Below, piece after piece: positions 3,001 through 6,000 of a stretch of DNA of 59,143 bases. Source of the DNA: Candidatus Omnitrophota bacterium (GTDB lineage: Bacteria > Omnitrophota > Gorgyraeia > Aquiviventales > Aquiviventaceae); the NCBI GenBank assembly GCA_016193175.1, contig JACPSR010000044.1:1-59143 (forward strand), given 5' to 3'. The notes below the pieces were generated by a model. That model searched no databases, was not told the origin of the DNA, and saw only the letters and a program-made list of their open reading frames with translations. Made by a program: the position numbers and the translations under genes. How positions within the stretch are numbered: position 1 is the stretch's first letter; each line of letters opens with the position of its first letter.

Positions 3001-6000
3001 CCATCGCCCGAATCGCCGCTGCGCTGTGGTACAGGCGATCCGCCACCGCCTTCACCTGATCGGCGATATCGGCCTCATCGACACCCTTGCCCCTCAGCGC
3101 CTCGGTGTACAGGCGTTCGAACTCCGCCCGGACGAGCTTGAACGCAGGTGCAGCAAGGTCTGCGGCCGCTCCCTTTTTGTAGAGCGGATGATCCAATATC
3201 CGGGAAGGACCCTTCGTCGCCTCTTCCCTGAATGCGTCTTCGATACCCTTCCGGGCTTGTCTTGTGTCCGCCAAGGCCTCGGCGGCGAGTTGAGAGATGT
3301 TGATACCGTTTGGATCCATGACGGGCGGTGTAGCGGCAGAGGACAGGTATTTCTTGGATGACCGGGCGCGGGTTCGCCTGCTCCTCATGATGAGCCACAC
3401 GAGCACCGGAACCCCCAGCGCGGCGAGTACGGCGCCAGCGAGCAGCGCGTCAGGACCGAAGGACACGATCCAGTCCAGCCAATCGCCGGCTGCGCTGCGG
3501 GGCTGTCCGTCGAAGCCCGTCGCCGCCTTCTGCAGTCCGAGAAAGGCCCCAACCGTCATCAGCCCCGCCACGCTGAGCATCCGACGGACGTCACCACTGT
3601 GCCTGCCCCCGCCCATCGGCGGCGCAGCGGCGGGCGGCGGCATGGCGCGATTGACAGGGTCCAGGAAACGTGCTAAGGTTGGACTGATGCTGAGCAAGGG
3701 TCGCAGGAAGTACATTGCGACGATCTGTGAACGGTTTGCCACGGTCGCCTTCGATGAGCTCGATGCCGTTCTTAATGCCAATCTTCCTAATGCTTGGTCT
3801 GAGCGTGGTCTTTGCTGGCCTGCTGTTCTGGGACCAGTACCAGAAGAAGCACGCCCCTCGGTAACTGGTCCTTCCGGCGCGCGGATGAACTGAACGGCCA
3901 CCACGGCCGCCAGTCCCCCAACCAGGCCTCCCAGCAGCACGCCTCCGAGTAGACTGGTTCCGATCGCCAGGCTCACCAGCACACCGAGCACCGACACCCC
4001 GATCGTCCCCGCGGCGATGACCTTGAGTGGTAGCAAGCCTCCTGCTGATCGCACTCGACTATCGGACAAAGCACGCCCACCGGTAGGCCCTGCCGCCTCC
4101 TTCCCCATCGGCACGCGGATCAACCCTGCCAGCCACCTCCAGAGATCCTTGACCGCCAGAGTCCAACTCCCGGGCCACATCACCCACACGAGCGGCACGA
4201 TCAAGGTGGCTAAGACAATGGACATTGGCACGGCCACCCCAGCGTAGGCCAGCGCAAACGGCGGTGCCAGCACCGCCAACGCCAACATCCCTGGGCTCCC
4301 GTTGTCCGATTTCTCTGCGTCGGCAGCCAGCGGCGTCGGCTCGGCAGGCGGCTCGGCGGTCCCTCCGGGAGGAGGGTTCTTCAGGGCTTCGTACTCCTGA
4401 ACAATCCGTACCCACTCATCCGCCTGAGGATCATGACGGCGGATCACCAGGCGCGCCCGCCCCAGTGCTGGCCGTTCCACAAACGTCTCCCGATAAAATT
4501 TCAGCACCTGAGCCAACGAACTGCCAACGGGTTTTTTGGAAAATGTCTTCCAGCCTTCATAGGCCCGCACGGCCTCCTCAATCGCCTCAGATTCAGCACC
4601 AGGATGATCATGCGAAATCGCGGCTCGAATCTGCTCAGGCGTGGGGATCGGCTCGGCGGTCAGTTGTGACGAATACAACAGCCCGCCGCGTTGGTTGCGG
4701 GCATAACTCCCGATGACGGTGATCGGCACCTCCACGCCATGCGAGGTATCCATGGTTTGGTATAACGGGACGAGATAGAAGGTGACGGTATCCCCGATGG
4801 CAGGGGGCCCGCGCCAGGTCCCCATCGCTCCCGCCACGTAATAGCCCTTGGCCCGAAGCCCATCGAGCATGGCTTGATGACTCAATTCCCTATATCGAGC
4901 GACATCATCCTGGGTGCGAATGGGCAGCGTAATCGTCACAACATCTTCGCCAACCGGCACGGGCAGAGCGAGAGCGGTGGCTGTGGACGGGGTGCGGATC
5001 GCGGGCAAGGAGTGCCGCTCGGCTTTCTCCGTTATGAAGTCGCGCACCGCCTGCACCAGCGGCGTTCGCATCTGGCCGTCAGGCCCGGGTGTCGAGACAT
5101 ACTGCATGATGTCCGTCACCAGCGCGGCGATCTGCGCGTGGCTGAGGATCGGCCGTGAGGTAAATTCTCGGCTGCGCGCAATCGCCCAATAGAGCACATA
5201 CCCTTCAACCAGATTCGCCACCCCGGTTTGCCGTTCCCGCTCGAGCAGGAACTGCACCACATCCACCGCGAGATCTTGCGCATCTCCCAGGATGTAATAG
5301 TCCGGACGCGCCACCCACGCTTCAGCCGCCCAGTCCCATTGCCACGGATCGTTCATGACCCCAGCGACCCACTTCATCGGAGCAGCCTGAGGCGAGTCAG
5401 GGGTTTCCGGCTTCAGCCCTAACTTGAGCAGCCGGGCGCGAATGTCAAGCCATCGTGCGAGCGCAAAGCGTTGCATCCGCACTGCCACGTCCGCCGCAAG
5501 GGCCCGGTGGTGTATGACGACCGGGATGCGCTGATCCATGGCGAAGCGGTAGCTCCATGCCTGTCGCTCTGCCTCAGACACCTCGTCAGGCGGCGCAAAC
5601 CCCTTCATGAGCGGCTCTTCGGGGATCACGACCGTCGGCATCCCCCGTGTCCCAACCCGCACCAACGCGTTTGGCTCAACCGCTGGCGTCGCCGCAGCAT
5701 CACCGGGCTGGAGGTTGCGATCTTCGCTGCGGACGATCCAATCGAGATCGCCAAGCCGCTCCAGGGCTGTTGCCACATCCATCGCAGGAACGCGAACCGG
5801 CCTGAAGAGCGGAGAGAGCGATCGCTCAGCCACCTCTTGGTCCTCGTCTGCAAACATCGCACGAAACCATTCCGCCGTCTCGATCGTGGGGATGTCCATC
5901 TTGACGAATGGCTGCAGAGCCCCTCGCACTTGAGGTGGCTGATCCTCCCGCACAGCCAGTTGCGCATCCACAAGCCGAACAGCCTGTTGAAGCCGCTCAA

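Follow-up and report, generated by a model that had tools for sequence, protein, structure and literature searches.

We analysed a window of 59,143 nucleotides (nt), positions 1 to 59,143 of contig JACPSR010000044.1 from an uncultured Candidatus Omnitrophota bacterium, and describe two short plus-strand segments in it, cassette A (12589-12829) and cassette B (3651-3893), which lie antisense within giant open reading frames (ORFs) of the minus strand. As a pair of nested antisense small-gene units, the two cassettes are real, unusual and non-random. Each combines a promoter-like site with a short ORF containing the motif KGRRK and a second small ORF for a peptide with one putative transmembrane (TM) helix. 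The giant frame running through them in the opposite direction has non-native codon usage there, and cassette A fills the insertion loop of a Hint domain. We favour the reading in which a compact opposite-strand gene unit, similar in build to type I toxin genes, is present in two diverged paralogous copies, A and B, at permissive sites of the host protein, and we give this reading about an even chance of being correct.

Anatomy and relatedness of the two cassettes

In cassette B, the promoter-like site (3651-3679, plus strand) consists of TTGACA (3651-3656), a 17-nt spacer ending in TGc and TAAGGT (3674-3679), and has an extended -10 element. An ATG exactly 7 nt past the -10 hexamer, a start of the leaderless type, opens an ORF of 68 amino acids (aa) beginning MLSKGRRK (3687-3893, plus strand; MLSKGRRKYIATICERF…), for which we use the name ORF-K in both cassettes. 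It overlaps a TM small ORF on the same strand (3763-3864), relative to which it lies in frame -1. This second ORF encodes a one-helix peptide of 33 aa (MPFLMPIFLMLGLSVVFAGLLFWDQYQKKHAPR, followed by a stop) ending in …FLMLGLSVVFAGLLFWDQYQKKHAPR, in which the helix FLMPIFLMLGLSVVFAGLLFW precedes DQYQKKHAPR; two ATG codons (3775 and 3790) and a TTG (3715) are other possible starts. A TadE-like match of this peptide (E 0.0018, below the cut-off) was discarded as hydrophobic-helix noise. The initial annotation had listed the promoter hexamers, the spacer with TGc, the ATG, the MLSKGRRK ORF and the overlapping ORF ending at 3864, and all of them were recovered where it had placed them. Its statement that the giant frame is stop-free through the cassettes was likewise correct, for cassette B as well as for cassette A.

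Cassette A was said to have identical promoter geometry, and this also holds. Its promoter-like site (12589-12617, plus strand) reads TTGACA, 17 nt, TGaTACAGT, again with an extended -10 element (10/12 matches, TG present). A GTG 7 nt past the -10 opens an ORF-K of 31 aa ((M/V)EPRLTSFWTKGRRKALSSTLLTIFQILLAE, then a stop; 12625-12720, plus strand), the stop of which lies 13 nt ahead of the TM small ORF. The latter starts with an ATG at 12734 and encodes 31 aa (MLFAVVTVLLLAMVAGAWLLIEDRRLRKHAH, then a stop; 12734-12829, plus strand), with the helix LFAVVTVLLLAMVAGAWLLI followed by EDRRLRKHAH. The upstream sequence GAGGGGAGAGG (12719-12729) resembles a Shine-Dalgarno (SD) sequence and provides a strong site 5 nt ahead of the peptide ATG. 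The layouts of A and B are alike, except that the ORF-K of A stops ahead of a peptide gene with a strong ribosome-binding site. In addition, the 5' end of the predicted cassette A transcript is able to base-pair with the peptide ORF at its 3' end (12627-12633 with 12806-12815, plus strand; GGAGCCG/CGGCUCC) and also with a segment just past the stop (12626-12642 with 12836-12852, plus strand). Such pairing might recall the fold-back of hok mRNA; it has neither statistical support nor a clear counterpart in cassette B.

On both strands of the window, TTGACA-N17-TANNNT occurs at two sites, which are those of A and B, whereas shuffled sequences lead one to expect 0.04. This bears out the earlier argument that two perfect -35 hexamers with an extended -10 are unlikely to arise by chance. 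Judged by the pattern TTGACA, 17±1 nt, TGnTAnnnT, both would be sigma-70 promoters of the extended -10 class. The sole clear intergenic promoter in the window, located upstream of a riboswitch, has the same design (TTGACA-N18-TGgTAGACT), indicating that the organism uses such promoters. Between the two cassettes, the promoter is the best-conserved stretch, with 21 of 31 positions identical, and the start codon stands at exactly the same distance of 7 nt from the -10 in both.

The resemblance extends into the small ORFs. The TM peptides are 39% identical from end to end with two one-residue gaps, a pair score reached by none of the 996 other stop-terminal peptides of the window and by 6 of 5000 shuffles; TM-like peptides are uncommon among stop-terminal peptides of the window (about 6 of 998). 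In pairwise BLASTP comparisons, E values were 6e-4 to 8e-4 for the TM peptides, 0.007-0.009 for ORF-K and 0.02-0.06 for the giant-frame translations of the same DNA. The KGRRK motif is encoded by AAA GGT AGG CGG AAG in A and by AAG GGT CGC AGG AAG in B. All four base differences are synonymous on the plus strand, and the giant frame opposite reads FRLPL in A versus FLRPL in B. A long-range DNA alignment with EDNAFULL-type scoring gave a z-score of about 3.5, matched by 0-1 of 1450 chunks of the window. By coordinate arithmetic, A and B agree in the phase that promoter and small ORF take relative to the giant frame. A six-frame score comparison of the cassettes was confounded by low complexity. 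The string atcttcc.aat, put forward earlier as a shared feature, is the best local match yet does not rise above chance, and it falls in different coding frames in A and B. Peptide similarity, the synonymous-only differences in KGRRK, the start at +7 and the shared phase support the conclusion that A and B are related beyond their promoter hexamers.

The giant gene opposite the cassettes and the insertion sites

Cassette A lies opposite giant ORF-1 (9006-46421, minus strand), which encodes 12,471 aa with C39, M48, PP2C and Hint domains. The host of cassette B is giant ORF-2, an open frame on the minus strand (2-9142) that runs off the start of the window and holds the cassette between TM segments. 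A public contig, JACPTW010000026.1 (GCA_016192565.1; locus L085), is 99.8-100% identical to positions 1-14288 of the window and carries 50 additional nt at 9135/9136 (also 9166-9168; L085 5158-5205). These put ORF-1 and ORF-2 in a single frame without a stop (…FLTTR TIEELKATRASLLELIA GTQGVAEE…), from which it appears that the two are most likely one gene of about 15,900 codons holding both cassettes. The discrepancy at 9135/9136 is either an assembly difference or a true deletion variant splitting this gene. The ORF-1 of the window closes with a frameshifted tail (WDSGCCRGG… up to a stop) of aberrant codon usage; the C-terminal continuation of ORF-2 is supplied by P0004/L085. Window and public contig otherwise differ at few positions, three of them single-nucleotide polymorphisms (SNPs; 4405, 12876 and 12903) and one a 3-bp indel (11907). 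Both cassettes are free of such differences, and the two SNPs nearest to the cassettes are located in the N-terminal part of the Hint domain.

Relative synonymous codon usage, a measure that factors out amino-acid composition, was scored over 3864 giant-frame windows of 32 codons. The stretch opposite the TM small ORF of cassette B was the worst of all 3864 (-0.36), and that opposite cassette A ranked in the bottom 1%. As a positive control, the ORF-1 tail known to be frameshifted (9054-9149) scored much like the cassette stretches, and the small ORFs of both cassettes had normal scores in their own frames. The conclusion that the giant-frame translation across the cassettes behaves as a non-native frame is supported by these scores. 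Within both cassettes, the G+C (GC) content falls to 0.51-0.56, with about 62% in the window as a whole, and the GC skew of the plus strand turns positive. The accompanying drop of GC at third codon positions in the giant frame (an inversion of GC3 and GC2) was rejected as a coding signal, given that about 25 linkers rich in Pro, Ala and Gly look alike. The strongest such inversion of the gene is found elsewhere in ORF-1, in a low-complexity Gly/Pro stretch of about 200 aa with PPGGGxGG repeats (29100-29750, minus strand), where GC3 goes down to 0.23.

The insertion site of cassette A is a Hint/intein-like domain of ORF-1 (12426-13133, minus strand; CFLAGTRITLADGT… TGEHP … VYNLT…ANGLAVHN, then Lys at +1), which matches the Pfam models Hint, Intein_splicing and PT-HINT and the PDB entries 8w20 and 2lwy. 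Blocks A, B, F and G, the residue Cys1 and the terminal His-Asn of the Hint fold are all present (C…TGEHP…VHN). Inteins require Cys, Ser or Thr at the +1 position, which is occupied here by Lys (AVHN followed by KDAS), and therefore canonical splicing is not expected. The sequence fits an A-type bacterial intein-like (BIL) domain or a PT-HINT cleavage domain (PMC7765530). On alignment to the 138-aa BIL domain 2lwy and a Streptomyces PT-HINT protein, an N part (aa 4-96) and a C part (aa 211-240) were matched, separated by about 13-15 aa in the relatives versus about 115 aa here. The alignment demonstrates that cassette A is inserted in a loop of the Hint/BIL domain, adding about 100 aa. The loop (12516-12857, minus strand; about 100-115 aa) is an in-frame read-through with cassette A on its opposite strand: the extra residues are cassette A read backwards, in the slot where inteins hold their homing endonuclease. 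No homing endonuclease was detected, a Pfam search of the giant protein giving only Hint-type models here. In an AlphaFold2 model of the domain, the confidence score pLDDT was 57-82 in the N part and below 50 in the insert; the model was poor overall and is usable only for the statement that the insert is not confidently folded.

Cassette B is found in a linker between TM helices of ORF-2. The two halves of the giant protein have two paralogous modules in common (ORF-1 aa 11372-11560, window about 11740-12308; ORF-2 aa 1858-2063, about 2954-3571), namely a TM segment (AGLMTV.A..GLQ…GF.G…W..W; 47% identity, E 8e-7) and a helical segment (F..LY…[LV]D…IA…ADR.Y; E 0.003-0.005), the order of which differs between the halves. 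A first BLASTP alignment ran colinearly across cassette B and joined ORF-2 aa 1730-1892 with ORF-1 aa 11372-11543. The possibility that cassette B is a degenerate copy of the helical module F..LY…ADR.Y was not supported. The giant-frame peptide of cassette B alone had no significant match in ORF-1 (E 5.6) and the helical module of ORF-1 matches ORF-2 aa 2004-2063, hence the alignment over the cassette is a gapped extension between real TM anchors. Relative to the TM and helical modules, A and B stand at non-equivalent positions. The cassettes were therefore not simply co-duplicated with host sequence.

The C39 peptidase domain at the N-terminus of ORF-1 is seemingly split by a junk-like insert of about 150 aa (45810-46238, minus strand; AQGSRQLPERSSDD…HQLPQ), which has the second and third worst synonymous codon usage in the gene. 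Neither a promoter nor a TM small ORF is present opposite this insert, and it was rejected as a third cassette on that account. The giant gene may thus be generally prone to read-through inserts in its domain loops.

Relatives and competing readings

The host regions are orphans. No homologues of ORF-2 aa 1500-2300 were detected among 5.8 billion proteins, ORF-2 aa 1680-1960 matched only itself among 1.84 billion representatives, and the Hint region gave weak PT-HINT matches only. The cassette sites could therefore not be compared between species. No homologue of the cassette peptides was found among called proteins, looking up the exact small ORFs as called genes gave nothing, and the ORF-2 peptides led to no related loci in genome and viral collections. 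No Rfam family was assigned at gathering thresholds, and E values up to 10 added only noise. Both cassettes contain a GGAAG/CUUCC complementarity, without covariation. Genome scans with peptide patterns and with a 31-mer promoter consensus yielded nothing, and a hidden Markov model of the peptides found nothing similar in 1.36 Mb of other Tad loci. The initial annotation had proposed a search for the peptide motif in related genomes; no relative of the cassette peptides was encountered in the protein searches or in the Tad loci, and the hits of the genome and metagenome pattern scans looked random.

A metagenome scan for the promoter with a start at +7 and KGRRK returned 39 matches, none with the cassette anatomy. 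Only one of the 39, Ga0302046_10034954 (L086 2138-2400, plus strand), has KGRRK in frame and then a TM helix (VCPASAKGRRK…WVIVLWIVVAIAVLALIVFLH). It comes from an unrelated contig of 68% GC and shows the same promoter geometry with a start at +7 and a single ORF with a basic N-terminus; it is probably a coincidence. The copy number stands at two in 59 kb, both in one uncultured organism, with none elsewhere in the collections scanned. The proposal that the cassettes belong to a repeated element family keeping host ORFs open therefore survives in part: the two copies are related, and no further copies were found that would make them a family. With two copies, no hallmarks of mobile elements and no relatives, 'family' is the weakest part of the claim.

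In the reading that we favour, each unit would begin with a near-consensus sigma-70 promoter with an extended -10, and a start codon at the predicted transcription start would open the short KGRRK ORF. Next, in the +1 frame relative to that ORF, would come the gene for a one-helix TM peptide of about 30 aa whose tail is basic (…[RK]KHA). The copies would occupy sites where the giant protein tolerates arbitrary sequence, with the giant frame reading through. We infer that transcription of the units runs head-on into that of the giant gene and that they are translated into a small peptide acting at the membrane as type I toxins do. The KGRRK ORF of cassette A stops 13 nt ahead of the peptide gene and could be coupled to it in translation, in the way that mok is coupled to hok. 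The fully complementary mRNA of the giant gene may serve as a natural antisense partner, so that expression of the giant gene and expression of the peptide would be mutually antagonistic. We think it unlikely that matters go further, to a selfish or addictive type-I-toxin-like unit that colonises permissive loops of a giant gene, including an intein-like endonuclease slot, with the host frame kept open and the host mRNA as the antitoxin, such that cells silencing or deleting that part of the gene would be poisoned.

Several observations weigh against the favoured reading. The TM small ORF of cassette B has no clear SD sequence, and the KGRRK ORF of this cassette passes through the peptide gene rather than ending ahead of it; for these two reasons cassette B may be decaying or otherwise organised. 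No Pfam, NCBIfam or PADLOC family was found for any of the four peptides, with only sub-threshold TM-type noise at E values up to 10. RNA folding was no better than that of shuffles (z-scores +0.18, +0.40, -1.2 and +0.3), and no intrinsic terminator is present past either unit. DNA similarity between A and B is weak outside the promoter and the stringent local alignment was not significant, at chance level. On this point the similarity claimed in the initial annotation holds for the peptides (39% identity; E 6e-4 to 8e-4) and fails for DNA under stringent alignment. The copies are near saturation, and no frame-specific substitution pattern can be extracted from them. Low GC3 is frequent in the linkers of the giant gene, and the antisense strand of linkers rich in Pro, Gly, Ser and Arg tends to encode hydrophobic residues. 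At least one other junk-like in-frame insert of the gene, that in the C39 domain, lacks cassette features. Finally, only two copies are available, both from one organism.

The best-surviving alternative, which we nevertheless consider doubtful, is a mobile repeated element resembling a miniature inverted-repeat transposable element (MITE), with an outward promoter and a small ORF, that inserts in coding regions and is selected or built to be stop-free in the host frame, as Rickettsia palindromic elements are. It would account for cassette A being a clean extra segment in the Hint/BIL loop that is absent from relatives, for the non-equivalent positions of the copies relative to the paralogous modules, for a GC content and skew unlike those of the flanks and for the host frame being open through both copies. 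The last point loses force in that three of the six minus frames across the cassettes are stop-free anyway, and an open host ORF therefore needs no special design. Moreover, terminal inverted repeats, target-site duplications and a palindromic fold are all absent at the cassettes, there are two known copies only, and three patterns found no match in the genome and metagenome collections, nor was there one in the 1.36 Mb of Tad loci.

We are slightly more sceptical still of the idea that the cassettes are regulatory antisense promoters which throttle or gate the giant gene by transcriptional interference or by formation of an RNA duplex, the small ORFs being incidental. The promoter is indeed the best-conserved element (21/31) and consensus-grade in both cassettes, transcripts could extend far antisense to the giant gene as neither unit is followed by a terminator, and the peptide gene of cassette B lacks translation signals. 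Such a role leaves unexplained that the peptide similarity covers the full small ORF, that KGRRK is kept through synonymous changes, that cassette A has a strong SD sequence and that giant-frame codon usage is most aberrant over the peptide ORFs and not over the promoters.

A chance origin, with disordered linkers of the giant protein whose antisense strand happens to hold promoter-like hexamers and hydrophobic ORFs and with nothing functional on the plus strand, is already disfavoured, and we hold it to be improbable. It draws on the same GC3/GC2 inversion in many linkers of the gene, on the often hydrophobic antisense translation of polar, Pro/Gly-rich sequence, on overall counts of promoter-like sites that do not exceed those of shuffles and on the non-significant stringent DNA alignment. 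Against this stands the very unlikely joint occurrence: the sole two perfect sites, where 0.04 were expected, each have a start at +7, KGRRK and a rare TM-like ORF. The small ORFs are also mutually similar (p ~1e-3), and the cassettes share the same phase and both coincide with extreme outliers of giant-frame codon usage.

Least probable is that the selected object is the giant-frame polypeptide, a duplicated protein module whose conserved codons create the plus-strand features as side effects, since the colinear first BLASTP alignment across cassette B (ORF-2 aa 1730-1892 with ORF-1 aa 11372-11543) and the shared giant-frame motifs GR.S..G.GPR and L..VN.A are outweighed by the E value of 5.6 for the cassette B giant-frame peptide alone in ORF-1 together with the match of the helical module to ORF-2 aa 2004-2063, by a giant-frame similarity between A and B (E 0.02-0.06) that is weaker than that of the plus-strand frames, by the non-native codon usage and by KGRRK substitutions that are non-synonymous in the giant frame.

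Genomic setting, known systems and significance

Both ORF-1 and ORF-2, the latter with an SLT lytic transglycosylase domain at aa 484-596, are located downstream of a Tad pilus locus. This locus comprises a TadA ATPase gene, two TadB/C-type genes, a TadG-like gene, several Flp/TadE-type pilin genes and a c-di-GMP-I riboswitch; the top match of TadA, at 53% identity, is to metagenome-assembled genomes of Omnitrophota. A row of small genes at about 52900-55060 on the minus strand (L002 14-2297) encodes Flp/TadE-type N-termini (…GTLEYLLV, …SATEYA, …AIIEYTILIG, MEYAVLLAIV), making up a set of Tad pilin or pseudopilin genes. The riboswitch (56620-56899, minus strand; 53.6 bits) has its own promoter, TTGACA-N18-TGgTAGACT, and a 12-bp terminator hairpin with a U-run. 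It is flanked by the TadA gene on one side and, further along the minus strand, by the small pilin-type genes on the other, a position suggestive of c-di-GMP control over transcription into the pilin genes.

With type I toxin genes such as hok/mok/sok, ldr, fst, tisB, aapA1 and pepA1, the cassettes share the kind of peptide encoded, which is about 30 aa long and has a charged tail and a single TM helix. Both peptides fall within the size class of type I toxins, which are hydrophobic, shorter than 60 aa and contain a single TM helix. A strong promoter of their own (predicted) and an upstream or overlapping short ORF recalling mok-hok are further common features. To judge from the arrangement, a fully complementary transcript from the other strand would also be obligatory whenever the giant gene is expressed. 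The cassette peptides have no sequence match to type I families (Hok, Ldr, Fst, TisB, Ibs, ShoB and others), and their toxicity is putative. Unlike in type I systems, no dedicated gene for a small antitoxin RNA is visible here, as no separate promoter or terminator was seen, and the partner would be an mRNA of about 47 kb. The cassettes further differ by sitting inside a protein-coding frame, and no significant structure was predicted in their 5' untranslated region.

Antisense-embedded overlapping genes of bacteria are small ORFs nested opposite annotated genes, and reports of them come mainly from E. coli. The cassettes are likewise small ORFs with a promoter of their own (predicted), wholly inside and antisense to a longer open ORF. 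They differ in being two paralogous copies in one host gene, one of them in the insertion loop of a Hint domain, and in that the host frame at the cassettes looks like mere read-through and not like dual coding. Rickettsia palindromic elements and other MITEs are in-frame insertions in protein genes. In common with these, the cassettes are extra segments of about 250-340 bp tolerated in frame at a permissive surface position, and the host frame is preserved. Terminal repeats or palindromes are missing from the cassettes, of which only two copies are known and whose promoter and coding capacity belong to the strand opposite the host gene.

The host domain of cassette A shares the Hint fold, Cys1, TxxH and the C-terminal His-Asn with inteins and A-type BIL domains (PMC7765530). 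Its insert differs from that of inteins in containing neither an endonuclease nor any other domain, and the apparent gene in it is encoded on the other strand behind a promoter of its own. In Omnitrophota and other uncultured bacteria, giant multi-domain proteins rich in TM segments are encoded beside secretion or pilus loci (bioRxiv 10.1101/2023.11.21.568195). The host gene described here is alike: it encodes over 12,000 aa with many TM helices and with SLT and C39 domains, and a type II/Tad-type secretion locus adjoins it. A search of the paper's text turned up neither inteins nor antisense genes.

Annotation of giant genes in uncultured bacteria is almost absent, and the cassettes would bear on how genes so large and costly are kept up and regulated. 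Should the cassettes not be expressed, they provide a useful caution that read-through linkers may harbour consensus promoters and peptide-like ORFs. If they are expressed, functional small-protein genes can hide antisense in giant ORFs, where gene callers miss them, and a gene on the opposite strand can take the place of an in-frame endonuclease in a Hint-domain insertion loop. In that case, the giant mRNA may be wired to a membrane-active peptide by antisense pairing, an arrangement that could be a maintenance or switching device.

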